The notes under the pieces were generated by a model. The model saw only the letters and a list, made by a program, of their open reading frames with translations, was not told the DNA's origin and did no database searches. DNA of 64,000 bases from a candidate division WOR-3 bacterium. Its GTDB lineage: Bacteria; Hydrothermota; Tepidihabitantia; Tepidihabitantales; DTDR01. Shown here one piece after another: positions 8,637-37,596 of the stretch (its first letter is position 1; every line of letters starts with the position of its first letter). The stretch lies in contig JANXBG010000002.1 in the NCBI GenBank assembly GCA_025060715.1, positions 11,294 to 75,293 of the forward strand, written 5' to 3'. The position numbers and the translations under genes were made by a program.

Positions 8637-9911
8637 TTGAAATATAGTTCAAGATATGAAAAATCTATTTATACTGGTCGGCCCGATGCGGTTCATGGGC
8701 AGTTAATTATTGAATATGAAAAACCTAATGTCTTTAAGAATAAAAGGGCAATTGATAATGCCTTTGAGCAGTTGGTAAGATATATTAAAGGGCTTTCTGA
8801 GGAGGAGAAAAAGGAACTTTTTATCTATGAAGCAAAATATATTGGTGTTGCTTTTGATGGTGATAAAATCTTTTTTGTCCGTTATAAAGGTAAGAAAGAA
8901 AAACCAAAAATTGAATTAGAAGATAAAGATTTCATTATTGAGGGACCTTATGATTTTAATATTGAAAGTGCCAAAACTTTTTTAATCCATTTAAGAGGTC
9001 TATCTCGCCTTCCTTTAACGGCTGATAATCTTTGTAAAAGATTTGGTGAAAAAGGGGTTGCCTCAAATGTTATCCCTGCTTTTGTTAATGCTTTAAAATA
9101 TTGGGGAAATCAAACTCAAATAAAAACATTCTTTGATGAATGGAAAAGATTATTTGGAATTGTTTATAGTGAGGGTTTTAATAGTAGCTATGGTAAAGGG
9201 ATAGATAAATTTTATCAGGTTTATAATGTAAAAAGAGAGGCTAATTTTCAAGAAATCCTATTTTCCATTCATACCTATTTTACCTTTTTAATGAAACTTT
9301 TAACTGCTGAAATATTAACTTTAAGAGAAACCTCTTTCTCTTCTTCCTTTATATCTTCTCTTATTCATTTTTCTGATGAGGAACTTAAAAGAAAATTGGA
9401 AGAGATTGAAGATGGTAGTATTTATGCTCAAAAGGGGATTACCAATTTTTTAGAGGGCGATTTCTTTCGTTGGTATCTTTCTGCCCTTGATTCTCCCGAA
9501 TTAAAAGATGCGATTAGAGAGATTGCTCGTGGTTTAGAAGAGTTTGAACCAGCAACAAATATCATTGAGCCAAATTTAACAAGAGATTTACTTAAAAAAT
9601 TATATCAATATTTAGTTCCCAAGGAAATTCGTCACAATCTTGGTGAATATTATACACCTGATTGGCTGGCAGAATTATTATTGAATGAAGTTGGTTATGA
9701 TGGTAATCTTAATAAAAGATTACTTGACCCGGCTTGTGGTTCAGGCACTTTCTTGGTTTTGGCAATCCAGAGAGCGATAAAATATGGTAAAGAGAAAGAA
9801 AAATTACCTGATATTGAGATTATTAAAAGAATATTAAAGAATATTTGGGGATTTGACCTAAACCCCTTAGCAGTAATCTCTGCCCGAACCAATTATTTAC
9901 TTTCCTTTTAG
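8637..9911 (+). CDS. N-terminal fragment of a Type IIG-like RM enzyme: PD-ExK nuclease motif plus N6-adenine methyltransferase motif I (frame-disrupted)
   Basis: GRPDAVHGQLIIEYEKP (PD...ExK-like) near the N-terminus and LLDPACGSGTFLV (SAM-binding motif I) near the C-terminus; frame stays open upstream to 8508 with no ATG (TTG/ATA starts only); ends at TAG 9909-9911 while frame +2 continues the protein. Confidence 0.6.
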   Translation: MKYSSRYEKSIYTGRPDAVHGQLIIEYEKPNVFKNKRAIDNAFEQLVRYIKGLSEEEKKELFIYEAKYIGVAFDGDKIFFVRYKGKKEKPKIELEDKDFIIEGPYDFNIESAKTFLIHLRGLSRLPLTADNLCKRFGEKGVASNVIPAFVNALKYWGNQTQIKTFFDEWKRLFGIVYSEGFNSSYGKGIDKFYQVYNVKREANFQEILFSIHTYFTFLMKLLTAEILTLRETSFSSSFISSLIHFSDEELKRKLEEIEDGSIYAQKGITNFLEGDFFRWYLSALDSPELKDAIREIARGLEEFEPATNIIEPNLTRDLLKKLYQYLVPKEIRHNLGEYYTPDWLAELLLNEVGYDGNLNKRLLDPACGSGTFLVLAIQRAIKYGKEKEKLPDIEIIKRILKNIWGFDLNPLAVISARTNYLLSF

Positions 9912-10015: not shown

Positions 10016-11713
10016 TTGCTTGATGAAGTGTATGAAATTTCTACCTCTGCTGGAAAGTTTCTAATTCCTATTGAATGGATAAAAGAGGGTCACATCCTGT
10101 TAGCAGCAACCCTGATTGAAGAGATGGTAAAAAACCGATATTCGCCAGACGAAGCATTAATAAGATTTAAAGAAGAGGGATTAGCCTTCACAACTAACCA
10201 AGATATAGTTAAAAATTTTTATTCCCAAATTTTAAATTTGGAAAAGGAGAATAAAAATGGTATTTGGGCAAGATTTTTAAAAAATGTTTTTGCACCAATG
10301 ATGGCAGGAAAATTTGACTTTGTTGTCGGCAATCCACCTTGGATAAGATGGGAGTATTTATCTAAGGAATATCGCGAGGCTACAAAAAATTTATGGGATT
10401 TGTATGGTTTATCAATAATAAAAGATTCTAAAGACACTCTTGGTAAAGGCAAAAAAGATTTCTCAATGCTTTTTACCTATGCTTCTTGCGATAATTATCT
10501 AAAGAAAGGTGGAAAATTAGGATTTTTAATCACCCAAGAAGTCTTTAAATCAAAAGGTGCGGGTGAAGGATTTAGAAGATTTCAAATTGGAGATAAAGAA
10601 TATTTAAAAGTATTAAAGGCGCACGATTTAGTTTCCATTAAACCTTTTGAAGGTGCGGCTAATAAAACTGCAATGATAATTATTAAAAAGGGAGAGAAAA
10701 CAGAATATCCTCTTCCCTATTTTGTTTGGAATAAAAAGAAAGGAACCGGCAAAATTCAAACTGATAATCTTTTAGAAGAAGTTCTGCCATTATTACAAAA
10801 GAAAAAATATATTGCTAAACCAATTGGCTTAAATGTTGGTGCTTGGCAAACTTTATTTATAGAATTAAAAGATTTATCTATGATTGAAGGTAAAAATTAT
10901 TATAAAGCTCAATCTGGCATAATTGATGACCCCTATGGAGTTTTTTGGATAGAAATAAAACAAATTCTTTCTGATGGAACTGTTATTATAAGTAATTTAC
11001 CTGAGAAAGGAAAAAGAGAAATTTCTAAAATAGAAATAAAAGTAGAACCGGATTTAATTTATCCCTCTTTACGAGGCTCTGATATCCAACGATGGCAGGC
11101 TAAATCTAAATTTTTTGTTTTCTTAACACAAAACCCTAAAAAAAGAGAGCCAATACCAGAGACAGATTTTAAAAAATATTTTCCAAAAACCTATAATTAT
11201 TTTATTAAATTTAAAGAAATTTTATTAAGTAGTAGCTCAAAAATGGTGAAAAGACTGCGTGAAGAAAAGGCCTTTTATGCAATGTTTGGTGTTAGTACTC
11301 ACACCATGAGTAAATATAAAGTTGTTTGGAAACAAATGTCCAATGATATTTATGGGGCAGTAATTTCTCAAATAAAAACTCCTATTGGATATAAAATTAT
11401 TATTCCACTCCATACTACTGCTTTTATATCCACCAATAATGAAGATGAAGCCCATTATCTTTGTGCGATTATCAATTCCAAACCAGTTAGGGAGTTTATT
11501 AAATCTTTCTCTTCTGCTGGTCGGGGTTTTGGCACACCTTCGGTAATGGAACATATTGGTATTCCCAAATTTGACCCAAATAATAAAATTCATAAAGAAC
11601 TTTCTTTGCTTTCCAAAGAGTGTCATAAACTAAAAGAAGAAGGAAAAGATAAAGAGATAGAAAGATTAGAAGATAAGATTGATTTATTAGTTAAAAAATT
11701 GTTTAATATTTAG
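10016..11713 (+). CDS. C-terminal fragment of the same RM enzyme: methyltransferase motif IV (NPPW) plus putative target-recognition domain
   Basis: FVVGNPPWIRWEY (N6-adenine MTase motif IV) followed by about 450 aa of putative target-recognition domain; this frame is open from 9857, overlapping the upstream fragment by about 55 nt, so a single frameshift joins them. Confidence 0.6.
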   Translation: MLDEVYEISTSAGKFLIPIEWIKEGHILLAATLIEEMVKNRYSPDEALIRFKEEGLAFTTNQDIVKNFYSQILNLEKENKNGIWARFLKNVFAPMMAGKFDFVVGNPPWIRWEYLSKEYREATKNLWDLYGLSIIKDSKDTLGKGKKDFSMLFTYASCDNYLKKGGKLGFLITQEVFKSKGAGEGFRRFQIGDKEYLKVLKAHDLVSIKPFEGAANKTAMIIIKKGEKTEYPLPYFVWNKKKGTGKIQTDNLLEEVLPLLQKKKYIAKPIGLNVGAWQTLFIELKDLSMIEGKNYYKAQSGIIDDPYGVFWIEIKQILSDGTVIISNLPEKGKREISKIEIKVEPDLIYPSLRGSDIQRWQAKSKFFVFLTQNPKKREPIPETDFKKYFPKTYNYFIKFKEILLSSSSKMVKRLREEKAFYAMFGVSTHTMSKYKVVWKQMSNDIYGAVISQIKTPIGYKIIIPLHTTAFISTNNEDEAHYLCAIINSKPVREFIKSFSSAGRGFGTPSVMEHIGIPKFDPNNKIHKELSLLSKECHKLKEEGKDKEIERLEDKIDLLVKKLFNI

Positions 11714-11714
11714 A

Positions 11715-14700
11715 TTACATTAAAATTACTTTTATCTTTTTCTCTTCTTTACCTTTTATCTTGATGATATAAATTCCTTTTGGTATTTTCTCTTTCTTGA
11801 AATTCCAATAGTAAACTCCTTCTTTGTTAATTTTGATATCTTTGATAACAGAACCAATTGAGTTATAAATTTTGATTTCCTTTATATCGCTTGCCTTATT
11901 TACTCTAAAATAAAGGACCTTTGTTGCCGGATTTGGATAAATCTTAACTCCAAAACCATCTTCTAATTTCTTTATTTCTTCTTCCATTATTGATTTATTT
12001 AATATTGGTGAATTTAACGCAAAAATAGTATCAAATTGAGTAGTATATGCCCAAAATTCATTAACATTACCACCTTTAAAAAGGTAAATAATTCCGTCGT
12101 CAGAACAAGTCATCGCTGCACCACTTTTTATCTTTCGGTTATAACGACCCCGAGGAACAGTATCTTTTACAGTCCAAGAATCACCAAAGACATCGTAGGA
12201 GACAAAATCTTGGGAATTACCACCTTTTACAAGATAGACTTTATTATTAAAATAAGTAATTGCTGCTCCTTTGGTTACTCTTTTACCAGTTGGTTTATAA
12301 GTCACTGAACGTAATTCTTTCCAAGAATCGGTAAGGGGATTATAGGAATAGAAATCATAAGTATTCTTACCTTTTACTAAATATATCTTCCCACCTCCAG
12401 CAGTCATTGCTGTACCAATACCACAAGTCTTCAAAGATGGAACCCTTGGGATTTCTGCCTTTCTTGTCCAGCGATTAGTTAAGGGATTATATGCCCAAAA
12501 TTCATTAGTATTGCCCCCTTTTGTCGCATAAACCATTTGGGTGGTTGGCTCATACACTAAAGCAGTTCCTTTATTAAAACCATAAACCCTTAAAGCGGGT
12601 GATAATTTAGGAATAGTACATAATTCAACCCATCTTCTGCTTATCAAATCAAAAGCATAAAATTCTTGACTATTTCCACCTTTTGTGGCATAAATTTTAT
12701 TATCCACCAATGAATATGTCAAGGCACAACCATATTTGGCTCTTCTCTTTTTACGAGTATATACTGAAGAATCGGGCAAAGAAGGCATAGTATCCCAAGT
12801 ATCTTTTTCTACATCATAATACCAAAATTCATTGGTGTTTGCACCTTTTAAGGCATAAACTCTTTTTTCACTTGGCACATAAACCAAAGCACCCCATTTT
12901 ACTCTTCGGTTATAACGACCCCTTGGTATTGGCGCCAATTCTATCCATTTATTAACCTCAAATCTTAATGTCAAAGTATCATTTTGCGAATAAATATCCT
13001 CCCTTGTCCACAAAGAGCAGACAATTGTATATCTACCATAAGAAAGATTAATTGGTGAGAAAATAAGATTGATTGAATCACCAACATTAAGATTAGTAAT
13101 TACTGAATCAAAATAAATAAGAGTATTATTCTTGTCAAAGATTTTTGCATATCCCTTTAATGTATCGGCTCTTAAAGTTCCTAAATTCTTCACAAGATAA
13201 TTTGGTCTTATTTCACCAATAAAACTTCCTTTTCTCGGTTTAATCAACTTTGTAATACCACAGTCTTTGAAATAGCGATAGAAAGAAATTACTAAACTAT
13301 CGGTCAATCTATTTCCCGGATAATTATGAGCGATTTTACCCTCACCATAAAGATATTCCAAACCAATATTACCTGTTGAATCTTCAATACCAACCGAAGC
13401 GCTTCTTCCATAATTAAACCTTCTATCACCACAATTCACATCCAAATACTGAACAATAACATTGCCATTTTCTTGTAAAATAATCTCAAAAGTAATTCCT
13501 GCTTTCGGAGATTGATAATCTGTTCCTTTTCTTCTCATATTTTGATAGATAATAACAACCTTTCTTTCGGGTCTTTCACCAATTACTTTATAAGAAATGC
13601 TTCCTCCTCCGAAATCTCTCCCACAAATTAAATCATCCCAATAAGCAAAAATCGCATTATTGGGACTTAAATGATAAGGAATTCGAGTATTATTTCCCGT
13701 ACCTTCTGGCCTTCTACCAAAAGCAGCAAAACCGTCTACCCCTATCCAGAGATAATTATAAGTAGTGTCATAAAATTTAAAGTTAAAAGGTAAATTAATT
13801 CCTACAACTGCATTGTCTCCTTCAGTAATTAATCTAAAGGCATTTGTTGTATCAATCCAATTAAATCGTGGACCGGTAATTGTATCAGAGTCAATCCAGA
13901 AATGGCGATAAATTCCGTGGTCAGGTCCACCGGTATAAAGGGGCGGCGCGATATAAATTATCTTAGTTGCTGTATCATTATAAAAATTATTATCCCCAGG
14001 TACATGGGTTCTAAATTTTACATAATATTTACCACCTCGTTGAGGGTGCCAATAAGTTAGAAAAGTATCAAAAAGTACTTCCTGAGGACGAAGTAAAGGA
14101 ACAGTACGATAAGAATTATAAACAACATTCATCAAAGAATCATAAATAGTGCAACTTATAGAAGCATTTGTGACTATCCAATTAGAAACATTTTGAATGA
14201 CAGCCATTGGTTTATATCTAATACCTTTTGGCCTTAATGATAGTTCACCTCTTGGTTTATAGACAAAATTAACCCGCCAATCAGGAAATGGTGGCGATAG
14301 GTAGTGCCGATAATCAATAACTACCCTAATCATCCAATCACCATTTGTTGTATCTTTTTTATAAAGAAGGGAATCTCCATCATCAACAAAATAATATCTA
14401 TGAAGAGCAGAGATAGAACGAGCCCGATCTCTTGCCAATTTTGGGGTATTATCCATATCATCAGTTTGAAGATAGAAAATATAAAAACCACCAGAATCAA
14501 TCGTTAATTTAATTGGTAATTGAAAACTATTCCAACCAGTAAAACCAGCGATCTCTGGACTTTCATAAAGTAAAGTTCCTGGTGAGGAATCTCTTCCATT
14601 ATCTTTTACAATTCTAATTCTAAAACGGTTAGCATATGTTATTGTATCAACATTCAAATATAAATGAACCTCTTTAAGTGTTGCTGGATACATTTCGGGA

Positions 14701-17700
14701 ATATATCTTACCCCCATTCCTTGGTCAAAGAGATAGAAAGCGGTATCCCGATAAACCACTCCGTCATCATAATAATAAAGTTTTTCCCAATTGACATAAC
14801 AAGAATAGATTATCGTATCATTAAAGGGATTATTATCCTCTCCAATTTTAGTAAAGAATTTTACTTGATAATGACCAGTATCAGCAATCCAATCATTGAA
14901 ATTAATAGTTAATGTCTCACCCCGATTGATAGGGGTAATTCTCATATCAGAATAGACTATATTACCAAAGGTATCTTTAATTGAAACTATTGTCGTGCAA
15001 GCAGGAATATTTTGAAGCCCAATATTAGCAATCTTGCAACTAACCGGAATTGGTTGGGGTAATTCAAAGTTTTTTGGCGAGATTGCTTGAAGGAGAGCAG
15101 CATCATAGTTATAAATCGTGTCACCATAAAGTCCAAAATCATCAAAACACCAGTAATAAATATCCTCTAAATTGCCTTCAAAAACAAAGGCAATCTGAAC
15201 TTCACTTTTGCCATCTGCCCAGGGTAATCTAAAGGTATCTATTGCCGGTCCAAAATTTTCAGTATATTCTTTAATTAAATACCAGGCATCAAAAAGATTA
15301 TCTCGGCCAACTATCTTAGCTTGATAATTACTCCCCCGTTTTCTAAAATTCATATTCACTTTAAGTAGAATATTTCTAAAAGCCTGACAATTTATTATTG
15401 GAGAAATTAAAGAATCAGGAGAATCAGAAGTATAACGATAGAAGATTGCTGGATAGGGTGTAAGATTTTGTGTCCAAGGCGTTTGGCCAGCTAATTTCCT
15501 ATGCCAATCATTTTCCGAAGTATCACCCGTAAAATAAACTCGCCAACCCGGCGGAGGGTTAATAGTATTCCAAATACTATTAAAATCTTGGAAATATATC
15601 GCCATTCTTGTTGCTGGTAAAACTTTTACTGAATCAATCATCACATCATTATGACGATACATATCATTTAATAAAGCAGTAGAACATTTTACGATATAAA
15701 AGCCTCGGGATGCTCGCCAACCAGGGCTAAAAGTAATTATTCTTTCACTATCAGGTAAAAGAGAAGAGAGATATGCCCGACGCAAAGTATCACCAATCGC
15801 AAAATAGATAGAACAAGAAACTGGTCGATTGCCAAAATTCTTTACCTTTGCTTTTGGTAAAATAATATTCCCTTCGTATAGATAACCCCTTGGTTCTAAA
15901 ATTTGGGTAACCCCAATATCATAGGCATAAACCAAAATATTTCTTTCTTGCTTATCGTTACTATTATTATCATCATATGCTAATTCTGTTGAACAAGAGA
16001 CTAAATAATTTCCTCTTACGGCAGTCCAGCTAGGAAAAGTAATTATTCTTTCCGAATCTGGTTCCAAAGAAAAGACTGTAACTACATTATTATAAAAATT
16101 ACCTATCTTAAAACGGACATAAAAGGACTCAGTTGAATTTCCATAATTTTTAACAATTGCCCGAGGATAAACGATAGTTGATTCAGCAACAGAGTCTCTT
16201 GGTGTAATAATTGATAAAACGCCAACATCATGAGCCAATACTTTAACAACTGTATCCACTTTATTATTATTAAGGTTTATATCGTTAACAAGCATTGTAG
16301 AACAAGAAACAACATAACTTCCAACGACTGCTGTCCAAGAAGGTAAAAAGCGAATAGTGGTATCCCTACCTGGCAATAGAGAATCAATTGTCAAATAAGA
16401 AAGATAAGCATTACCGATTCTAAACATTACCTGAAAATTCCTCTCTTTTTCTGTTCCATTATTCCTAATTCTTGCCCTTGGATTAACTACTGTGCCTGGT
16501 AAAATTCTGCCAGCCGGTTCTAAGATTTCTAATGTCATCAAGTCATGAGAAATCACATAGAGTAAAGAATCAACTCTGTTATTCGCATTATTCATATCTG
16601 TTGTTAATCGCGTAGAGCAGGAAACTATATAATTGCCCCGAATCGGGTTCCAACCTTGACTAAATGTATAATCCAATATCTGACCTGCCGAAAGCTCTAC
16701 CGTATCTATTACAATAAAAGCATTCCCACCACCAACCACATCTATCCGAAATACCACTGGAAACCTCTCCCTAACATTTCCAAAATTAATCAACCTCGCA
16801 CGCGGCATCACTAATTGACCCTCTAACACTGTATCAATAGGCTCAATTATATCCCCAACACCAACATCATGATAAATAACAAATAAGGAAGAATCCCTCC
16901 GATTATTATTTGGATATAAATCACCTGCTAATAATGTACTACAACTTACTACATAACTACCACGAACCACGTTCCAAGGATCAAAACTAACGGTAATTAC
17001 CGAATCCGGTAATAAATCAGTTACCGAAACAGTATCCGTATAAATATCCCCTATCCTAAATATAACATCAAAATCCTCTACTACATTACCATAATTCTTT
17101 ACCACTATTTGCGGCGTAATTAAAGTGCCTTCTAATATCGTATCCACCGGCTGTATGATATACTCCACTCCAACATCATGAGCAATCACAACTAATGTTG
17201 ACTCTTTTTTATTGTTATCTGAATATAAATCATTTATTAATAAAGTTGTGCAAGATACTGGATAAGTACCCCTAACTGCTACCCAGGACGGAAATACAGG
17301 TTTAACAATTGAATCTGGTTTGAGATTCAGAATATCTAAAGTCTCCTCGTAAACACCACCAATTTTAAATATTACCTTAAAATTTTCTGATACATTACCA
17401 AAATTCTTTATCTGTGCTGTCGGCATTAAAGTATTGTTTTCTAAAACCGTATCCACTGGCGCTATAATATATTCAACACCAACATCATGGGCAACAACAA
17501 ACAAAGATTTTTTAATATAATCGTTAGAAACGTCTTGGTCCGTTGATAACATTGTTGTGCAAATCACCACATAATTTCCTCTAATTGCTTCCCAACTTTG
17601 GCTGAAACGATGTTTTAATGTTTCATAAGGAGATAATGAAATAGTGTCTATAATATTAAATATTGGTGTCTGACTTCCGACATTTTCTATACGAAATTGA

Positions 17701-18521
17701 ATAGGAAATTTTTCACTTACATTTCCCAAATTTACTACTATTACTGTAGGTACAATCGTATCTCTTTCTGTTAGCGTGTCCGGAGGTATTGTTATTTCTA
17801 TTATTCCGACATCATGATAAACAACAAATAAAGAAGAATCTTGCCAATCATTATTATTATTGATATCGGTGGAAAGCATTGTTGAACATCTCACAATGTA
17901 GTTACCTCTTACCGCCTGCCAACTTTGACTAAATGTATAATCTAATTTCTCACCCGCTAATAACTCTACCGTATCTATTACAATAAAAACATTCCCACCA
18001 CCAACCACATCTATCCGAAATACCACTGGAAACCTCTCCCTAACATTTCCAAAATTAATCAACCTCGCACGCGGCATTATTAATTGACCCTCTAACACCG
18101 TATCTACCGGCTCAATTATATAACTAACACCAACATCATGATAACTAACAAATAAGGAAGAATCTTTTTTATCATTATTGGGATTCTCATCACCAAGTAA
18201 TAAAGTACTACAACTTACCACATAATTGCCACGCACTGCTGGCCAAAGAGCAAAACTGACCGTATCAACAGAATTAGGTAATAACCCAATAATTAATGCT
18301 GTATCTTCATAAATATTACCAATTTTAAATATTGCCCGAAAAGTAGCAGGAAAAGTTCCATAATTTTTTACTACTGCTTGAGGTATTATTAAATCCCTTT
18401 CTCTTACTGTATCAACCGGTGAAATTATATACTCTACTCCAACATCAATATCAAGAATTTGCGAAAAAGATAAGTTAAAAACAAATAAAGAAAATAAAAC
18501 TAAAAAATAATTTTTTCTCAT
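11715..18521 (-). CDS. Giant (2268 aa) secreted T9SS cargo protein: signal peptide, ten tandem CARDB-like Ig repeats, central unknown region, six-bladed Kelch-like propeller, C-terminal T9SS sorting domain
   Basis: N-terminal signal peptide; about 95-aa repeats with consensus HDVGV.YII.PVDTVLEG.L..P.A.IKNFGNV.E.F.V.FRI; repeats GGN..EFW.Y....D.W near the C-terminus; last ~80 aa KIYPNPA...IKIYNSIGSVIKDIK...GIYIIKIK match the Por/T9SS C-terminal domain. Confidence 0.8.
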   Translation of the reverse strand: MRKNYFLVLFSLFVFNLSFSQILDIDVGVEYIISPVDTVRERDLIIPQAVVKNYGTFPATFRAIFKIGNIYEDTALIIGLLPNSVDTVSFALWPAVRGNYVVSCSTLLLGDENPNNDKKDSSLFVSYHDVGVSYIIEPVDTVLEGQLIMPRARLINFGNVRERFPVVFRIDVVGGGNVFIVIDTVELLAGEKLDYTFSQSWQAVRGNYIVRCSTMLSTDINNNNDWQDSSLFVVYHDVGIIEITIPPDTLTERDTIVPTVIVVNLGNVSEKFPIQFRIENVGSQTPIFNIIDTISLSPYETLKHRFSQSWEAIRGNYVVICTTMLSTDQDVSNDYIKKSLFVVAHDVGVEYIIAPVDTVLENNTLMPTAQIKNFGNVSENFKVIFKIGGVYEETLDILNLKPDSIVKPVFPSWVAVRGTYPVSCTTLLINDLYSDNNKKESTLVVIAHDVGVEYIIQPVDTILEGTLITPQIVVKNYGNVVEDFDVIFRIGDIYTDTVSVTDLLPDSVITVSFDPWNVVRGSYVVSCSTLLAGDLYPNNNRRDSSLFVIYHDVGVGDIIEPIDTVLEGQLVMPRARLINFGNVRERFPVVFRIDVVGGGNAFIVIDTVELSAGQILDYTFSQGWNPIRGNYIVSCSTRLTTDMNNANNRVDSLLYVISHDLMTLEILEPAGRILPGTVVNPRARIRNNGTEKERNFQVMFRIGNAYLSYLTIDSLLPGRDTTIRFLPSWTAVVGSYVVSCSTMLVNDINLNNNKVDTVVKVLAHDVGVLSIITPRDSVAESTIVYPRAIVKNYGNSTESFYVRFKIGNFYNNVVTVFSLEPDSERIITFPSWTAVRGNYLVSCSTELAYDDNNSNDKQERNILVYAYDIGVTQILEPRGYLYEGNIILPKAKVKNFGNRPVSCSIYFAIGDTLRRAYLSSLLPDSERIITFSPGWRASRGFYIVKCSTALLNDMYRHNDVMIDSVKVLPATRMAIYFQDFNSIWNTINPPPGWRVYFTGDTSENDWHRKLAGQTPWTQNLTPYPAIFYRYTSDSPDSLISPIINCQAFRNILLKVNMNFRKRGSNYQAKIVGRDNLFDAWYLIKEYTENFGPAIDTFRLPWADGKSEVQIAFVFEGNLEDIYYWCFDDFGLYGDTIYNYDAALLQAISPKNFELPQPIPVSCKIANIGLQNIPACTTIVSIKDTFGNIVYSDMRITPINRGETLTINFNDWIADTGHYQVKFFTKIGEDNNPFNDTIIYSCYVNWEKLYYYDDGVVYRDTAFYLFDQGMGVRYIPEMYPATLKEVHLYLNVDTITYANRFRIRIVKDNGRDSSPGTLLYESPEIAGFTGWNSFQLPIKLTIDSGGFYIFYLQTDDMDNTPKLARDRARSISALHRYYFVDDGDSLLYKKDTTNGDWMIRVVIDYRHYLSPPFPDWRVNFVYKPRGELSLRPKGIRYKPMAVIQNVSNWIVTNASISCTIYDSLMNVVYNSYRTVPLLRPQEVLFDTFLTYWHPQRGGKYYVKFRTHVPGDNNFYNDTATKIIYIAPPLYTGGPDHGIYRHFWIDSDTITGPRFNWIDTTNAFRLITEGDNAVVGINLPFNFKFYDTTYNYLWIGVDGFAAFGRRPEGTGNNTRIPYHLSPNNAIFAYWDDLICGRDFGGGSISYKVIGERPERKVVIIYQNMRRKGTDYQSPKAGITFEIILQENGNVIVQYLDVNCGDRRFNYGRSASVGIEDSTGNIGLEYLYGEGKIAHNYPGNRLTDSLVISFYRYFKDCGITKLIKPRKGSFIGEIRPNYLVKNLGTLRADTLKGYAKIFDKNNTLIYFDSVITNLNVGDSINLIFSPINLSYGRYTIVCSLWTREDIYSQNDTLTLRFEVNKWIELAPIPRGRYNRRVKWGALVYVPSEKRVYALKGANTNEFWYYDVEKDTWDTMPSLPDSSVYTRKKRRAKYGCALTYSLVDNKIYATKGGNSQEFYAFDLISRRWVELCTIPKLSPALRVYGFNKGTALVYEPTTQMVYATKGGNTNEFWAYNPLTNRWTRKAEIPRVPSLKTCGIGTAMTAGGGKIYLVKGKNTYDFYSYNPLTDSWKELRSVTYKPTGKRVTKGAAITYFNNKVYLVKGGNSQDFVSYDVFGDSWTVKDTVPRGRYNRKIKSGAAMTCSDDGIIYLFKGGNVNEFWAYTTQFDTIFALNSPILNKSIMEEEIKKLEDGFGVKIYPNPATKVLYFRVNKASDIKEIKIYNSIGSVIKDIKINKEGVYYWNFKKEKIPKGIYIIKIKGKEEKKIKVILM
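16640..16880. repeat. Intragenic direct repeat copy A (about 90% identical to 17900-18140, with a roughly 90-nt identical core)
   Basis: Shared string cattcccaccaccaaccacatctatccgaaataccactggaaacctctccctaacatttccaaaattaatcaacctcgcacgcggcat occurs in both copies; encodes CARDB repeat 6 versus repeat 2 of the giant protein. Confidence 0.8.
17900..18140. repeat. Intragenic direct repeat copy B
   Basis: Same string as copy A, about 1.26 kb away. Confidence 0.8.
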
Positions 18522-18589
18522 TATACCTCCTTGATGTAAAGAAACATTTTTTATTATAAATTAAAAATATTTTTATGTCAACAATAAGG

Positions 18590-31505: not shown

Positions 31506-33581
31506 TCAGATTTTAATTATTTTACCATTTACTTTATAACCCTTTTCATTTATCAAAAGAAAATAAATCCCCTTTTTAAAATTTGCCATCTCCTTTAAAA
31601 AAACCTTTTCCTTTTCAATTCTTTTTTTGTAAATTAAATTCCCTTTTAAGTCATAAACTTTTAAAAGAAAAGAGGAGTTCTTCGGCAAATCAAATATAAG
31701 GGTATTATTTTTTGAAAAAGGATTAGATAAAGAGATAATATGAGCATAATCCAAAACTTCAAAACTAAAAAATTCACTACCTAAACCTCTGTTGCCATAT
31801 TTATCAACGGGAATAATCAAAAGATAATATTTTCCTTTTTTTAAATGATAAAAAGTATAATTGGTATCGTTAAAAATCTTAAATTCCTTTAAGTTTTTAA
31901 AGCTAATAACCTTTATTTCATCAATAAAAACACCTAAGTAAGTAATTGAGGAATCGGTTTGATAGCGAAACCTTAAATAATAACTTCCCTGAGGTAAAAG
32001 GATTTTTATCTCTTCAAAATAATTACTCTTGCCGTAAAAGGAATCTAATTTTTGAAAATTAACCTTATCAAAAGAATATTCTAAATAAAATATATCCCTT
32101 TTAATTCTATTTAAATAACTCTCCTCAGTAGAATAGAGCAAATCAAAGACTAATAAACCACCTTCTTCTAAATTTATTTTCTCTTTGGTTATTAGACAAT
32201 TATTTAATAAAAGGCCTTCATTAGAATAAAAGGAATTACCCTTTTTAGCAAATTTTCTTGACAAAGAAAAACCGTAATTTTCCCAGAGAGCAAAATCTTC
32301 ACAGGAATCATAAAAAATTGTATCAAAAGAGTTAAAAAGATATAGATAATAATTAATTTCACTCAAATCAAAAGATTTAGAAAAATTTATAAAAATATTA
32401 TTTCTTTTTCTTTCTATTTTTATCTTTTTTACTATTTCAGGTCTTATATCATCTAAGGAATAATATTCGTTTAAAAATTCCAACCACTTTACTTCTCTTT
32501 GAAATTCTAATAAAGCGTATTCTTTTATATATTTTTTAAAGCCAAAATAATAATAGGGGAAAAATATTGCTAAACCTTCTCCCTTTTTATAAAACTCTGT
32601 TTTCTTTATACTGATTATTGAGGAAAATATTTTATTTTCAAAATTTAATTCTTTTAAAAGATGGAAAAAATCAATGTGAGAAGCAAAAGAATCTTCTATT
32701 TCAAAAAAGGGATAGGTCTGAATTTTATTTCTTATTAGAGAGAGAAGAGGCTTTTTTTCTTTTAAAAAAGAGAAAGCTTTTTTATATTCCTTTTTTAATA
32801 TGTTTAAATCAATGGCAGAAAAAACTCCTTCTTCTTTTCTTTCTTTTATATTTTTTAAATTATTTTCGGCCCAAATTTCAGAAAGTTCCTTTATTTTTAT
32901 ATCTGGATTTTCTTCAATTTTTTTTATTAAACTTTTGTAATCCCACGCTGAAATTGGTAAAATACTGGGAGAAGCAAAAAGATAATCACAATCATCAAAT
33001 ATTTCAAAACAGATTTCTACCATTCCCATTAAACAGACATCAAAACCAAGAATTTTTATTTTTCTTTTAAGAATTTCCTTGGCTTTTTTAACAAACTCCC
33101 TTAATCCACCACCGGCAACCGAGAGAGAACTACGATCTGTTTCATCATACAAAAATGCCCGATTTAAACTTTGATACCAGCCATTACCGTGGCTATAAAA
33201 TATTAAAAAGTAATTCTCGCTTTCGTAATTTTCTTTAATATACCTTAGAAAATCACTAAAAAAATTTATTTCCGCAATATTAACCTCCGGTAATTTTCTT
33301 TTTAATTCAATATTTCCATTATTTAATTCATAAATTTTGGGAAAAGGGGAAGTATCATAAAAGGCATTATCTATTAAAATTATTGTTCTTACTTTTTTGT
33401 TATATCCCAAATTGGTTAATTTTAAAATCTCTTGATAACCAGCATTAGATAAGTCATTATCGCAAGCAAAATATAAAATAATTGTCCATTTTGATTTTCC
33501 AAAAAGAAGAGATATAAAAATAAGAAAGAGAAATAATTTTTTCATAAAATAAAAATGGGGGTTGATTGGCTCAACCCCCAA
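31506..33581 (-). CDS. Secreted clostripain-like (peptidase C11) cysteine protease with T9SS C-terminal sorting domain
   Basis: Signal peptide; ILYFACDNDL, YSHGNGW (catalytic His region) and LGFDVCLMGMVE (catalytic Cys region) resemble family C11; C-terminus VYDLKGNLIYKK...GIYFLLINEKGYKVNGKIIKI matches the T9SS C-terminal domain. Confidence 0.6.
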   Translation of the reverse strand: MGVEPINPHFYFMKKLFLFLIFISLLFGKSKWTIILYFACDNDLSNAGYQEILKLTNLGYNKKVRTIILIDNAFYDTSPFPKIYELNNGNIELKRKLPEVNIAEINFFSDFLRYIKENYESENYFLIFYSHGNGWYQSLNRAFLYDETDRSSLSVAGGGLREFVKKAKEILKRKIKILGFDVCLMGMVEICFEIFDDCDYLFASPSILPISAWDYKSLIKKIEENPDIKIKELSEIWAENNLKNIKERKEEGVFSAIDLNILKKEYKKAFSFLKEKKPLLSLIRNKIQTYPFFEIEDSFASHIDFFHLLKELNFENKIFSSIISIKKTEFYKKGEGLAIFFPYYYFGFKKYIKEYALLEFQREVKWLEFLNEYYSLDDIRPEIVKKIKIERKRNNIFINFSKSFDLSEINYYLYLFNSFDTIFYDSCEDFALWENYGFSLSRKFAKKGNSFYSNEGLLLNNCLITKEKINLEEGGLLVFDLLYSTEESYLNRIKRDIFYLEYSFDKVNFQKLDSFYGKSNYFEEIKILLPQGSYYLRFRYQTDSSITYLGVFIDEIKVISFKNLKEFKIFNDTNYTFYHLKKGKYYLLIIPVDKYGNRGLGSEFFSFEVLDYAHIISLSNPFSKNNTLIFDLPKNSSFLLKVYDLKGNLIYKKRIEKEKVFLKEMANFKKGIYFLLINEKGYKVNGKIIKI

Positions 33582-34647: not shown

Positions 34648-37596
34648 TTACATTATGATGGCAAATTTACCAATCTGTTTACCGTATTTAGAATCCACAT
34701 GAAAGATATAGACACCGCTAGCAACCTTCTGATTGTGCTGATTTAACAGATTCCATTCAGCTGTACCGCCAAATTTATTATTTTTAGTTCCCTTTTCCGA
34801 AGACTTATGTTCAATTATCTTCACTAAATCACCAGCCAAATTGAAAATTCTAATAACGCATTCATCAGGTAAATTCACAAATTGTAATCTTCTTGCCAAA
34901 GTTGTCTTTTCCCACTTATTAGTAATAATATAAGGATTAGGCACCACTTTCACATTCAATTTTTGACCTGCCATATCAGTAAATCTCATTGCGGTGGTAG
35001 TTATTATAAATTTGTTATAAGAAGGAGCTGTACCATAAGTTTTATTAGAATAGATATACCAAGTATCGCCAGGCTGTATCATCTGTTTAATTTGAGGATT
35101 TATCGGTCCACCTTTTCTAATTTGGATATAACCACCAGGTATATAAATATAAAATTCATTATTTCTTAAGGTATCGGATGCACGAGTGGTGATAGCAGTT
35201 CCGTTTAGAAAAGCCCAACAATTACCATATCCAACTCGCCACATATTAAAGAGAGAATCATATTTTACTTCTACTTTATTAGTCAAATCATAAACCTCTT
35301 TTAATGTTAATCCGCCTTCTGGTTTTCTTCCCCAAACAAGCCGATAATCAGAACCGCGAAATGCCCAAGCAACTTTTAAAAAAGGTTGTCTATCTAATGT
35401 CAATAATTTCAACGATTCAGCTGGATAATTTCCATTAACATTCTTAATCTCCACATTAACAAAAGGTTCAGGTTTTGCAGAATCTAATTCCATTGTAAAT
35501 ACTAAGTTTGTTCCATCAAAGGAAGGAAAATAGAATTTCTCTTTTTTACCCAAGGTATAAGGTATTTGGCAAGTTACCAATGTTTCGCTGTAATCTAATT
35601 TAGTAATTATCGCTTGATAAATTGGTTGAGTATCTATTAAATTACATATCGGATCAAGGAAGGTTAAAAGATATTGAGTATCTTTTGTTAAATAAGGAGC
35701 GGTAAAGATAACATCAAATTTAAACTTATTATTGAGGCTATCTCCGATAAGCATTTTTATTTCTGAAGAGGGTTTTTGATAATTAGCTACCTCTTTTCTT
35801 GGTGTCACTTCAATTGCTTGGATTCCGCTTTCTAATATTAAAGTTTTTCCCCAAGTTTTATTATAATCAAAAGAAGTTACTGCATAATAATAAGTATATC
35901 CATTAATCACACTGTCATCCACATAATAGTAGAAAGTTCCTTTATCGTTTGCCCAGACAAAAATACTTTCTGAATAGACAGTATCTCCTCTGATAATCTC
36001 CGTTTTCTTAAAAGTATCGGCATATTTAATACCGTTTTTCAAATCGCAAATGGCTTTGAGTTCCCATTCAACTCCGTCAAGGGATTTATAAATTTTATAA
36101 CCTTCAAAATCATATTCCCGATAAGTTGTATCACCAGCTAATTGAGCAATTCTGTAATAGGGGTCAGGAATTTTCTCCATTCTATTATCCCAAGATAAAA
36201 TTACCCGATTATCTTGGGGCATAGCGGTTACAACCGGTGGGAAGGGAGGAGCAGGTAATAACCAGTTTTTATCATAACATCTTTGAGCTTCAGCACTTAC
36301 TCTTGCTAAATCCCAAGTATCTCTTTGATTAAAGGGTTGTCCCTCTTCTCCGTATTTTGCTGCAATCACAGCAACCACCAAGGTCGCTATTGAATCGGGT
36401 GGTAAATCAAAAGGACCTGTAGATTGTAAAAACCTTTTATCTCCGGGTGTTTCGTCAATATTATCATACGGCTTATATTCTCGGGTAGCAATCTGATAGC
36501 CAGCCAACGTCAAATATTTTTCAACATCTGTTTTTGGGTCTTGCTCAAGAGTAAACATCTTACAACTGGTCATTCCTAATTGTTCAATTTCAGAAAAGTC
36601 TCGCCAAGCAGGAATGTTATCATTATCACTATCTCTTAATAGTGTGTCAGGAAGACCACAAATGTAGGCACTATCAATTTCTTGTAAATCAATTAAACCA
36701 TCTTCATCGTTATCTTTATTATCTTTTAAGGCATAAGGACTTTGTAAAAAGTCATAAGCAACTGCTCCAGGAACTCCTCTTTCCCAAAGCGTGCCGGGTG
36801 ATTCACGATTATCACTATCATAAATCCAAGCAAGATTATCCACAAAAATAGAATCGTTACCTTTTTTAATATATTTTCTTGGCGTTCTTCTCTCGTCAAG
36901 AACCATTGCCATCATATCATCCCGATAATACCCCACATCTCCATCCAAAACTACTCCGAGATACATATTTTTCAAAGTATCTCCTGAAACATTTTTTATT
37001 TCGTATTTCAAAAAGAAAATATCCCGATTAGAAGGTAAGTTCCAATGATAACCAGTTAAATAAACATCCACACCAATTGGTTTTGTGTCACCTGGTTTAT
37101 GGGCTGGTAAGTGGGCATCGGAAAAACAACACCAAACATCCATACCCGAAACAGTATCTTGGGGTGCCATTGGAAACTTATCTTTTGGGGGTGGCCATTT
37201 ATCAGGAAAATAATAGATACAATCATCGGCAGTTCCCGTAGAGCCATCATATCTTGAATGGATTACTGGCCACAATTCACTGGCACCAGAATTGGGATCA
37301 TATCCACAGGAAACTAATGTCTCACCTTGGGGAGAAATTGCGCCAATCCAAATTCCGGCACCAAAGATATAGAAATTTCTTAAAGGTCTTGGCCAAGAAC
37401 CACCAGCTGCACCCGTTCCACCTCCTCCGGTAGCATCAAATCCAAATCTACCATCATTGTGAAGAGGATAACGCCAGCGGTTGTATTCAATCCATTTTTG
37501 CTCAAAGACTTTTTTTCCTGAATTAGAGGTAAATGTCTTTGCAAAAAGAAGAGTGATGGAAAAGAGTATTAAAATAGCTATTAATTTCTTATACAT
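34648..37596 (-). CDS. Large (982 aa) secreted protein of unknown function with T9SS C-terminal sorting domain
   Basis: Signal peptide; C-terminus KVVPNPYIITNKWEK...IRIFNLAGDLVKIIEH...SGVYIFHVDSKYGKQIGKFAIIM matches the T9SS C-terminal domain pattern. Confidence 0.65.
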   Translation of the reverse strand: MYKKLIAILILFSITLLFAKTFTSNSGKKVFEQKWIEYNRWRYPLHNDGRFGFDATGGGGTGAAGGSWPRPLRNFYIFGAGIWIGAISPQGETLVSCGYDPNSGASELWPVIHSRYDGSTGTADDCIYYFPDKWPPPKDKFPMAPQDTVSGMDVWCCFSDAHLPAHKPGDTKPIGVDVYLTGYHWNLPSNRDIFFLKYEIKNVSGDTLKNMYLGVVLDGDVGYYRDDMMAMVLDERRTPRKYIKKGNDSIFVDNLAWIYDSDNRESPGTLWERGVPGAVAYDFLQSPYALKDNKDNDEDGLIDLQEIDSAYICGLPDTLLRDSDNDNIPAWRDFSEIEQLGMTSCKMFTLEQDPKTDVEKYLTLAGYQIATREYKPYDNIDETPGDKRFLQSTGPFDLPPDSIATLVVAVIAAKYGEEGQPFNQRDTWDLARVSAEAQRCYDKNWLLPAPPFPPVVTAMPQDNRVILSWDNRMEKIPDPYYRIAQLAGDTTYREYDFEGYKIYKSLDGVEWELKAICDLKNGIKYADTFKKTEIIRGDTVYSESIFVWANDKGTFYYYVDDSVINGYTYYYAVTSFDYNKTWGKTLILESGIQAIEVTPRKEVANYQKPSSEIKMLIGDSLNNKFKFDVIFTAPYLTKDTQYLLTFLDPICNLIDTQPIYQAIITKLDYSETLVTCQIPYTLGKKEKFYFPSFDGTNLVFTMELDSAKPEPFVNVEIKNVNGNYPAESLKLLTLDRQPFLKVAWAFRGSDYRLVWGRKPEGGLTLKEVYDLTNKVEVKYDSLFNMWRVGYGNCWAFLNGTAITTRASDTLRNNEFYIYIPGGYIQIRKGGPINPQIKQMIQPGDTWYIYSNKTYGTAPSYNKFIITTTAMRFTDMAGQKLNVKVVPNPYIITNKWEKTTLARRLQFVNLPDECVIRIFNLAGDLVKIIEHKSSEKGTKNNKFGGTAEWNLLNQHNQKVASGVYIFHVDSKYGKQIGKFAIIM

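Follow-up and report, generated by a model that had tools for sequence, protein, structure and literature searches.

A candidate surface-displayed binding protein of 2268 residues with T9SS export signals in a candidate division WOR-3 bacterium

Background

The 64,000-nucleotide stretch of contig JANXBG010000002.1 analysed here (the window) carries, at 11715..18521 on its minus strand, one continuous open reading frame whose translation runs for 2268 aa from an ATG start without an internal stop. The locus raises the question of what such a protein might do for an uncultivated candidate division WOR-3 bacterium, and whether so long a frame is a real gene. An initial annotation had described it as T9SS cargo with CARDB-like repeats, a centre without an obvious family and a Kelch-like propeller, and had inferred that it is probably a major cell-surface adhesin or an S-layer-like component. 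Because bacteria of the FCB group commonly have large modular T9SS cargo, a gene of this kind is no surprise in itself and does not overturn current understanding. We present a corrected domain map that accounts for the whole sequence and may be of use for annotating uncultivated FCB lineages and for choosing domains for binding or structure studies. All coordinates for features of this gene refer to the minus strand.

Results

The initial annotation had raised the concern that the 6.8-kb ORF might be an assembly chimera of several genes; a mis-assembled repeat array and a pseudogene were weighed together with it. In favour of such a reading, the sole public contig of the same population (L066, 99.95% identical) stops inside the sixth repeat of the array, R6, at exactly the point where a 140-nt stretch matches R2 at 93% identity. 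No other record carries the full 2268-aa product, P0002 being an identical but truncated GenBank entry, and nine repeats are found here compared to eight in the orthologues. Against it, orthologues of 2158–2162 aa with the same domain order were identified in at least three other assemblies, where they have the same neighbours (HEAT protein, ClpB, M23 peptidase). R2–R9 correspond in order to the eight repeats of the orthologues, and R1, the additional copy, is just 64% identical to its nearest counterpart. Between DNA copies within the array, identity over 300 nt does not exceed 78%, with no near-identical DNA repeats. Wherever dS could be estimated for a domain, dN/dS was 0.05–0.19, well below 1. 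The conserved synteny of the eight-repeat orthologues in independent assemblies argues against a chimera, which was rejected as the main reading. The concern is largely answered, with the contig end inside the array as the part that stands. We consider an artefact or pseudogene highly improbable, and the sequence comparisons indicate that the ORF is a real gene, all of whose domains evolve under purifying selection. We also rejected a functional link to the M23 peptidase and ClpB genes upstream, as the synteny is limited to close orthologues and absent in distant family members.

Beyond the end of the M23 peptidase gene, a 68-nt gap contains a promoter-like element, TTGACA-17 nt-TATAAT (18553..18581), with a 12/12 match, which is kept in the orthologous loci, exactly in L001 and as TTGACT/TATAAT in L002. 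This element may function as a promoter of the sigma-70 type. A Shine-Dalgarno sequence, AAGGAGG (18526..18532), was read 4 nt before the ATG at 18521 and is also kept in L001 and L002. Together, the perfect, conserved promoter-like element and the strong Shine-Dalgarno are the sole hint of high expression, their strength being judged from the motifs.

Signals for export were observed at both ends of the protein. The predicted signal peptide, aa 1–21 (MRKNYFLVLFSLFVFNLSFS, cleaved before Q; 18459..18521), was assigned together with its cleavage site by inspection of the translation. It has no lipobox cysteine, and its ...FSQ end recurs in the orthologues P0001 and P0003. At the other end, a linker and a T9SS type A C-terminal sorting domain (CTD) occupy 11718..11996, followed by the stop codon at 11715-11717. 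The sorting domain, aa 2194–2266 of 2268, matched both Por_Secre_tail PF18962 (34.9 bits, cut-off 27) and TIGR04183 (34 bits, cut-off 23). We assigned T9SS type A cargo by a CTD at the extreme C-terminus scoring above these cut-offs together with a Sec signal peptide, and the 2268-aa protein has both, in agreement with the initial annotation. No T9SS machinery gene (SprA/Sov, PorK/L/M/N, PorU/V) was found among the window ORFs scanned, and a weak PorV match beside the orthologue in L002 was the sole machinery sign. The window does encode two further T9SS-tail proteins, a C11 peptidase (31506-33581) and a HEXXH/CARDB protein (55179-57248).

Directly after the signal peptide, aa 22–964 (15630..18458) form nine tandem CARDB-like Ig-fold repeats, each matched by a repeat HMM at E 1e-40 to 1e-48. 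The repeats R1–R9 start at aa 22, 128, 236, 345, 448, 551, 659, 764, and 867, are 98–109 aa long, and are mutually homologous at 33–78% identity (R2 vs R6 78%, R1 vs R5 64%). Pfam CARDB (PF07705) scored 89.3 bits over the whole protein (E 2e-25, cut-off 22.7), with its best stretch at aa 667–754, which supports the family named initially. The count had been ten repeats of ~95 aa; the repeat HMM instead resolves the nine tandem copies and three divergent ones further along, for a total of 12. Two of these act as spacers in the central region, namely domain 10 at aa 1151–1245 (14787..15071; Pfam CARDB 27.9 bits, E 2.8e-6, cut-off 22.7; repeat HMM aa 1162–1237) and domain 11 at aa 1436–1528 (13938..14216; repeat HMM aa 1438–1524, E 1e-7). 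Domain 12, aa 1753–1852 (12966..13265; repeat HMM aa 1753–1849), lies directly before the propeller, and its homologue ends at most 40 aa before a Kelch propeller in 27 retrieved proteins. The proposed CARDB paralogy with the HEXXH protein at 55179-57248 was also confirmed, as that ORF has HEFNH and two repeats that match the repeat HMM (E 2e-16 and 2e-29) and are 26–39% identical to those of the 2268-aa protein.

The stretch that separates the array from the propeller had been taken for ~700 aa without an obvious family. It spans 888 aa (965–1852) and resolves into three domains with CARDB spacers, conserved together as a block: a choice-of-anchor-J-like (A), a lectin-like (B), and a NIDO-like one (C). 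Direct Pfam and NCBIfam scans of the three domains gave nothing at E<=10 except choice-of-anchor R at 0.095, and profile searches of the PDB with the central block and with domain B gave no meaningful match. Secondary-structure prediction was all-beta throughout the block. With 13 sequences as input, AlphaFold2 modelled the whole 788-aa block poorly (pLDDT 55), and the Foldseek matches of this model (complement C5, beta-galactosidase, TM<=0.17) were discarded because they show no more than a string of beta-sandwiches.

Domain A, aa 965–1150 (15072..15629), was recognised by hhalign as a divergent choice-of-anchor-J/MAM-like jelly-roll and carries the motif F.DFN..W....PP.GW...FTGDT..NDWHRK ... 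PDSLISP. Its family profile aligned with NF038128-passing segments over 161 columns (probability 98.3%, E 1e-14), while no direct match to choice-of-anchor J NF038128 (cut-off 30 bits) was obtained even at E<=10. We describe it as choice-of-anchor-J-like by an indirect, remote relation and do not count it as an NF038128 member. Domain B, aa 1246–1435 (14217..14786), appears to be a beta-jelly-roll of the lectin/CBM/PHR type that belongs to no sequence family; its best compact structural match was the lectin-like domain of Cwp84 (PDB 4ci7), an S-layer-associated protein.

Domain C, aa 1529–1752 (13266..13937), shows the strongest conservation within the protein, with the invariant motifs IDSDT..GP..W.D, WDDL, ENG, and GRSA.VG. 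No direct HMM match to NIDO PF06119 (cut-off 25 bits) was found, and its relation to NIDO runs through intermediates (P0015, P0174, P0192, P0199, P0239). Domain C aligns with P0015 aa 469–679 (35% identity, E 8e-41), in which Pfam NIDO is above threshold at aa 528–621, and the domain-C HMM spans the Pfam NIDO stretches of the other four at E 1e-22 to 1e-59. The domain is therefore called NIDO-like by this transitive, indirect homology, and not a direct NIDO member. It is very widespread in bacteria, with >900 representative proteins at E<=1e-30 that are mostly missed by the Pfam model. To our knowledge, no function has been assigned to a NIDO-type domain in any organism, and our literature search on bacterial NIDO domains found nothing relevant.

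The six-bladed Kelch-like propeller of the initial annotation is well supported at aa 1853–2175 (11997..12965). Several Kelch models scored above their cut-offs, among them Kelch_6 (48.3 bits, cut-off 25.3), Kelch_KLHDC2_KLHL20_DRC7 (58.7, cut-off 50), and Kelch_1 (30.1, cut-off 20.1). Six G[GAK]N..[ED]F blade motifs occur at aa 1893, 1948, 2002, 2051, 2100, and 2150, with a spacing of 49–55 aa, and solved propellers in the PDB were matched (designed SAKe, 6.5e-15; KEAP1, 2e-6). A similarity to NanM/mutarotase was weak and sub-threshold (PF24996, 25.5 bits against a cut-off of 45; TIGR03548, 29 against 243). The Kelch-plus-CTD tail is common to 62/101 retrieved proteins, a count in which the CTD was inferred from a C-terminal remainder of ~100 aa, and its heads include C25, M6, C1, and S8 peptidases. 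WOR-3 T9SS cargo very often ends in this cassette, irrespective of the head domain.

Selection was not uniform along the protein. Domains A, B, and C had dN/dS of 0.05–0.09 (A 0.07–0.08, C 0.05–0.06), compared to 0.15–0.19 for most CARDB domains (0.18 for the array, 0.09 for CARDB domain 12), which corresponds to purifying selection 2–3.5 times stronger on the former three. The contrast would fit a division of labour in which A, B, and C are the working domains and the CARDB domains serve as spacers or extension.

P0090-P0099 conserve the 788-aa central block over its full length (33–39% identity, 98–100% coverage), and in them it begins right after the signal peptide. An exhaustive search placed the full block in ~17 clusters (50% identity), nearly all of them belonging to candidate division WOR-3, and most of these clusters share the order signal peptide, A, CARDB, B, CARDB, C, CARDB, Kelch, and CTD where the tail was detectable. 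A word-indexed profile search added one weak new protein only, P0101. By these comparisons, the C-terminal ~1300 aa are a conserved, nearly WOR-3-specific architecture. The N-terminal array of 8–9 repeats was observed only in the 2268-aa protein and its close orthologues P0001, P0003, and P0004, with none in other members, which marks it in sequence terms as a recent, clade-specific distal add-on. The WOR-3 T9SS proteins of ~1300 aa (P0090-P0099, P0104-P0116) share the domain order and differ in having no array between the signal peptide and the block. NCBI names these entries only as 'T9SS type A sorting domain-containing protein' or 'CARDB domain-containing protein', and a literature search on WOR-3 with T9SS or CARDB found nothing relevant.

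Discussion

We propose, with a probability of roughly 0.55, that the 2268-aa protein is a non-enzymatic, T9SS-exported, surface-displayed binding protein of this WOR-3 bacterium. All residues between the signal peptide and the CTD were assigned to all-beta modules of a binding type: 9 + 3 CARDB Ig-like domains, a choice-of-anchor-J/MAM-like jelly-roll, a lectin/CBM-like jelly-roll, a NIDO-like domain, and a six-bladed Kelch propeller. In Bacteroidota, the CTD of T9SS cargo guides the folded protein across the outer-membrane translocon after Sec export and is then cleaved, with the new C-terminus attached to the cell surface (PMC5445135, PMC4804311). Cleavage and anchoring are established for Bacteroidota only, and we extrapolate them to WOR-3. 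After Sec export, the CTD here would likewise guide the folded protein through the translocon and then be cleaved, and the new C-terminus would be fixed to the surface, thereby placing the Kelch propeller beside the membrane. The conserved block above it (choice-of-anchor-J-like, CARDB, lectin-like, CARDB, NIDO-like) would be the ligand-recognition core, and the nine CARDB repeats would project farthest from the cell, over some tens of nm. The likeliest role would be multivalent binding to a polymer or surface outside the cell, probably a glycan or protein. The protein may thus be an 'adhesin-only' counterpart of the paralogues that carry the same accessory modules behind C25, M6, C1, and S8 peptidase heads.

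A different role on the surface would be that of an abundant, T9SS-anchored coat or S-layer-like component that tiles or shields the cell, with the fast-evolving distal CARDB array as its variable outer face. The expression signals would suit this, as would the very large size and Ig-like array, the fastest evolution of the CARDB repeats with a copy number of 8 vs 9 between close relatives, and the resemblance of domain B to S-layer-associated Cwp84. We nevertheless think it unlikely: Pfam and NCBIfam gave neither SLH nor a known S-layer family, the array is absent altogether from most family members, the strongest constraint falls on the lectin-like and NIDO-like domains, a pattern more typical of ligand recognition, and the promoter strength is inferred only. 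The protein might also not stay on the cell, as in Flavobacterium, where part of the type A CTD cargo is released into the medium. The CTD would in that case direct secretion, and the mature protein would be shed as a soluble binding or scavenging protein. A CTD indicates export only, anchoring relies on machinery of the PorU/PorZ/A-LPS type, and the window carries no T9SS attachment genes, yet the elongated multi-Ig form and the conserved propeller beside the CTD in most cargo of the lineage are more easily explained by a surface pedestal. We give release little credence.

Much the same slight weight goes to a cryptic enzyme, in which the NIDO-like domain, with its invariant DSD/WDD/E-N-G, or the propeller would be catalytic and the rest would serve substrate targeting. 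Catalytic Kelch propellers do exist, such as galactose oxidase and the NanM mutarotase, the weak similarity of the propeller being to the latter. The NIDO-like domain is both very widespread and the most constrained (dN/dS 0.05), and it might have a catalytic or metal-dependent role because its invariant motifs are acidic, among many invariant acidic and polar positions. However, no catalytic family was matched in Pfam, NCBIfam, or PDB sequences, the NanM-type scores fall far below cut-off, and no peptidase family was found in Pfam/NCBIfam at E<=0.1 except that the CTD region matches the tail of a T9SS M36 model; an enzymatic head was rejected for want of a catalytic-family signal. The Kelch-plus-CTD tail is generic behind many unrelated heads, which argues against a specific catalytic role, and the NIDO-like domain of the paralogues is an accessory beside true peptidase domains. 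As a long shot, the conserved block with CARDB, Kelch, and CTD could be an undescribed surface recognition apparatus largely confined to WOR-3, with the NIDO-like domain as its active element, acting as a catalyst or as a receptor specific for a polymer. If true, this family would be the first handle on the function of NIDO-type domains.

The binding protein that we favour can be placed beside several known systems. Among WOR-3 T9SS peptidases, the M6/immune-inhibitor-A-like proteins P0015, P0023, and P0045 share the NIDO-like domain (35–38% identity, E about 1e-40), with CARDB, Kelch, and CTD further downstream, but they have an N-terminal Peptidase_M6, whereas the 2268-aa protein has no peptidase domain or HEXXH motif. 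Domain B resembles the Cwp84 lectin-like domain of Clostridioides difficile, PHR, and CBM35/36/32 in fold only, at 6–16% identity, with no sequence-level relationship found. A six-bladed Kelch propeller is shared with eukaryotic and bacterial proteins (KEAP1, KLHL20, and the NanM mutarotase); unlike theirs, the propeller here is predicted to be extracellular and lies immediately before a T9SS CTD. The relation of the 2268-aa protein to its peptidase paralogues is one that we take to be comparable to that of HagA to the gingipains RgpA/Kgp in Porphyromonas gingivalis. This likeness carries no implied haemagglutinin function, and unlike HagA, the protein has no Cleaved_Adhesin PF07675, carries a set of CARDB, choice-of-anchor J, NIDO-like, and Kelch modules, and comes from another phylum. 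Both are large T9SS type A CTD cargo made up of non-catalytic beta-sandwich modules only, and in both lineages, paralogues with a peptidase head carry these modules behind it as accessory domains.

Domain architecture of the 2268-aa protein

The ORF at 11715–18521 on the reverse strand is a single uninterrupted frame of 2268 aa with an ATG start. By inspection, a signal peptide typical of Sec export, MRKNYFLVLFSLFVFNLSFS↓Q, opens the protein and is kept in orthologues, and a domain search placed the protein in the CARDB, Kelch, and T9SS type A C-terminal sorting domain (CTD) families, as the initial annotation had proposed for all four features. Pfam scored the protein at 89 bits for CARDB (E 2e-25), above the cut-offs of several Kelch models, and at 34.9 bits for Por_Secre_tail (aa 2194–2264; cut-off 27); in NCBIfam, TIGR04183 (T9SS type A sorting domain) reached 34 bits, over its cut-off of 23. 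Six copies of the blade motif G[GAK]N..[ED]F lie at aa 1893–2150, spaced by 49–55 aa, in a region that aligns with solved Kelch propellers. Pfam and NCBIfam scans of the protein found no peptidase or S-layer signature, and no catalytic family was found across its full length.

In the assembled sequence, an HMM built from the repeats identified nine tandem CARDB-like copies (R1–R9, aa 22–964; E 1e-40 to 1e-48) of 98–109 aa each, so that the tandem array described initially stands, with nine copies in place of ten and a greater length than the ~95 aa first estimated. Three weaker copies were observed at aa 1162–1237, 1438–1524, and 1753–1849. Cleavage at the predicted signal-peptidase site would leave Gln at the N-terminus (SFS↓Q; codon 22, window 18456–18458), and an A↓Q context occurs in several family members (database proteins P0111, P0112, and P0114–P0116). 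This recalls the Bacteroidetes 'Q-rule', which is reported not to be general to the FCB group (PMC5837995); other secreted proteins of the window, such as the ORF at 55179, are without the pattern.

Gene integrity and locus

A chimera of several genes, the concern raised in the initial annotation, is unlikely given four observations. In other assemblies, orthologues 2158 aa long (82% identical) and 2162 aa long (74%) have an identical domain order and share with the window the upstream genes for a HEAT-repeat protein, ClpB, and an M23 peptidase. Their eight repeats are collinear with R2–R9, which leaves R1 as the extra repeat, and R1 shares only 64% identity with R5, the copy closest to it. 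At the DNA level, no repeats in the ORF exceed 78% identity over 300 nt, and dN/dS against the two orthologues is 0.05–0.19 in each domain with estimable dS. The ORF is a gene under selection, and we give very little weight to its being an artefact.

A truncated copy is already in GenBank under a generic name. The closest database protein, P0002 ('CARDB domain-containing protein [candidate division WOR-3 bacterium]'), is a 1680-aa fragment that is 100% identical and covers aa 589–2268 only. Its contig, JAVQUG010000017.1 (L066), is a public GenBank contig from the same population, 99.95% identical to window 16789→8715, and its terminus falls inside R6, exactly at 140 nt that are 93% identical to R2 (L066:1–140; window 16789–18058). 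The public assembly thus broke in the array, which is why the deposited protein is a fragment and the full product is not on record.

Upstream of the ORF, a promoter-like TTGACA-17-TATAAT element (18553–18581, reverse strand; 12/12 match to the sigma-70 consensus) and a Shine-Dalgarno sequence, AAGGAGG (18526–18532, reverse strand), both fall in the 68 nt that separate the ORF from the M23 peptidase gene and have been conserved at orthologous loci. These consensus elements suggest strong expression of the ORF and the use of canonical sigma-70-type promoters in WOR-3. The M23/ClpB synteny is confined to close relatives and therefore implies no operon partner. Downstream, a split Eco57I / type IIG-like restriction-modification gene (8637–9911, N6_Mtase, and 10016–11713, Eco57I and TaqI_C; forward strand) is convergent with the ORF, and a single base separates their stop codons. 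Loci L066 and L004 have this gene but the orthologous locus L001/L003 lacks it, a pattern that suggests an insertion.

The central region

The stretch between array and propeller, first described as ~700 aa with no obvious family, is in fact 888 aa (aa 965–1852), in which the three divergent CARDB copies split off three other domains: A (aa 965–1150), B (lectin/CBM/PHR-like jelly-roll, aa 1246–1435), and C (aa 1529–1752). Domain A had no direct Pfam or NCBIfam family match. Its family profile aligned by hhalign (98.3% probability, E 1e-14, 161 columns) with segments of the relatives P0081 and P0084. These segments score over threshold with the NCBIfam model for choice-of-anchor J (NF038128) and also weakly match InhA-like MAM, MAM, and Reelin-B models. 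Domain C shares 35% identity (E 8e-41) with aa 469–679 of the M6 peptidase P0015, within which aa 528–621 match NIDO over the Pfam threshold, and in four further relatives the Pfam NIDO stretches sit within domain-C HMM matches. Since the 2268-aa protein did not pass the choice-of-anchor J and NIDO HMMs directly, A and C are named '-like' only.

Structure prediction for the 788-aa A-CARDB-B-CARDB-C block gave an all-beta model of poor quality (pLDDT 55), whose fold matches were uninformative. Values of dN/dS were 0.05–0.09 in A, B, and C, compared with 0.15–0.19 in most CARDB domains (0.09 in CARDB12, directly before the propeller), meaning that nonsynonymous change is 2–3.5x slower in A/B/C than in most CARDB domains. 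This contrast fits conserved working domains that would be spaced and lengthened by faster-evolving Ig-like spacers.

Distribution of the block and of the Kelch-CTD tail

The block (window 13266–15629) is kept end to end, at 33–39% identity and 98–100% coverage, in proteins of 918–1362 aa, where the signal peptide leads straight into it. When 1.84 billion representatives were searched exhaustively with HMMER, the full block turned up in ~17 clusters at 50% identity, most of them ~1315–1362 aa long with the order signal peptide, A, CARDB, B, CARDB, C, CARDB, Kelch, and with a CTD wherever BLAST could detect one. In a one-genome-per-species collection, full-length matches came from WOR-3 or 'uncultured bacterium' MAGs, with weak exceptions in Ignavibacteria and Zixibacteria. 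The N-terminal array of 8–9 CARDB repeats is limited to the clade of the window's protein. Our literature searches found no description of the ~1300-aa architecture, which is thus undescribed as far as searched, yet assembled from known module types.

More broadly, the block profile matched 8605 representatives at E<=1e-10, and the NIDO-like domain alone matched >900 at E<=1e-30, often in tandem with up to three copies per protein. Only some of its carriers are seen by the Pfam NIDO model; by these profile matches, it occurs very widely among bacteria. Of the 101 retrieved proteins, 62, mostly from WOR-3, have a homologous six-bladed Kelch propeller ahead of the predicted CTD, with a median of 103 aa between the end of the propeller and the C-terminus, and behind heads that include C25, M6, C1, and S8 peptidases and FG-GAP/VCBS repeats. 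With such varied heads, Kelch plus CTD looks like a generic, lineage-wide cassette of cargo, not one specific to the 2268-aa protein.

Other proteins of the window

Two more proteins of the window have T9SS-type tails. The 689-aa ORF at 55179–57248 (forward strand) carries HEFNH, a short CTD-like tail, and two repeats that match the repeat HMM (2e-16 and 2e-29) and are 26–39% identical to those of the 2268-aa protein, in agreement with the related HEXXH protein noted initially. It had no Pfam match at E<=0.01, including over its N-terminal ~420 aa with HEFNH, which may represent an uncharacterised metallopeptidase family. The C11 (clostripain-family) peptidase at 31506–33581 (reverse strand) has a weak, sub-threshold C-terminal Por_Secre_tail match (24.4 bits; cut-off 27) and is probably further T9SS cargo. 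On the same strand, a TonB-dependent receptor with a CarboxypepD_reg N-terminal domain (37608–40343) directly precedes a 982-aa ORF with no Pfam match (34648–37596); the two may form an uptake pair, SusC/SusD-like or of another kind.

Proposed function

Judged by its recognisable domains, the 2268-aa protein consists of a signal peptide, a type A CTD, and otherwise exclusively binding-type beta modules. In Bacteroidota, T9SS cargo is exported by Sec and guided across the outer membrane by its CTD, which is then removed, and the new C-terminus is attached covalently to the surface (PMC5445135, PMC4804311). By analogy, the 2268-aa protein would pass through all of these steps. The Kelch propeller would then sit nearest the membrane, the choice-of-anchor-J-like, lectin-like, and NIDO-like block in the middle, and the nine CARDB repeats at the distal tip; with this topology, the array would be an outward extension rather than a stalk beneath a head.

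The function that we judge most likely, at a probability of roughly 55%, is that of a non-enzymatic surface protein with multivalent binding. A structural coat we regard as unlikely; the scans detected no S-layer signature. Somewhat less likely still is a cryptic enzyme within the NIDO-like or Kelch domain, given the lack of any catalytic family match, and a shed soluble protein, as opposed to one attached by its C-terminus, is just as improbable. We are also doubtful that the NIDO-like core serves as a specific receptor or catalyst, a role that, if real, would explain NIDO-type domains in general. As a multivalent binding protein, the 2268-aa product would be to the peptidase-bearing cargo of its lineage what HagA is to the gingipains, an adhesin-only counterpart.
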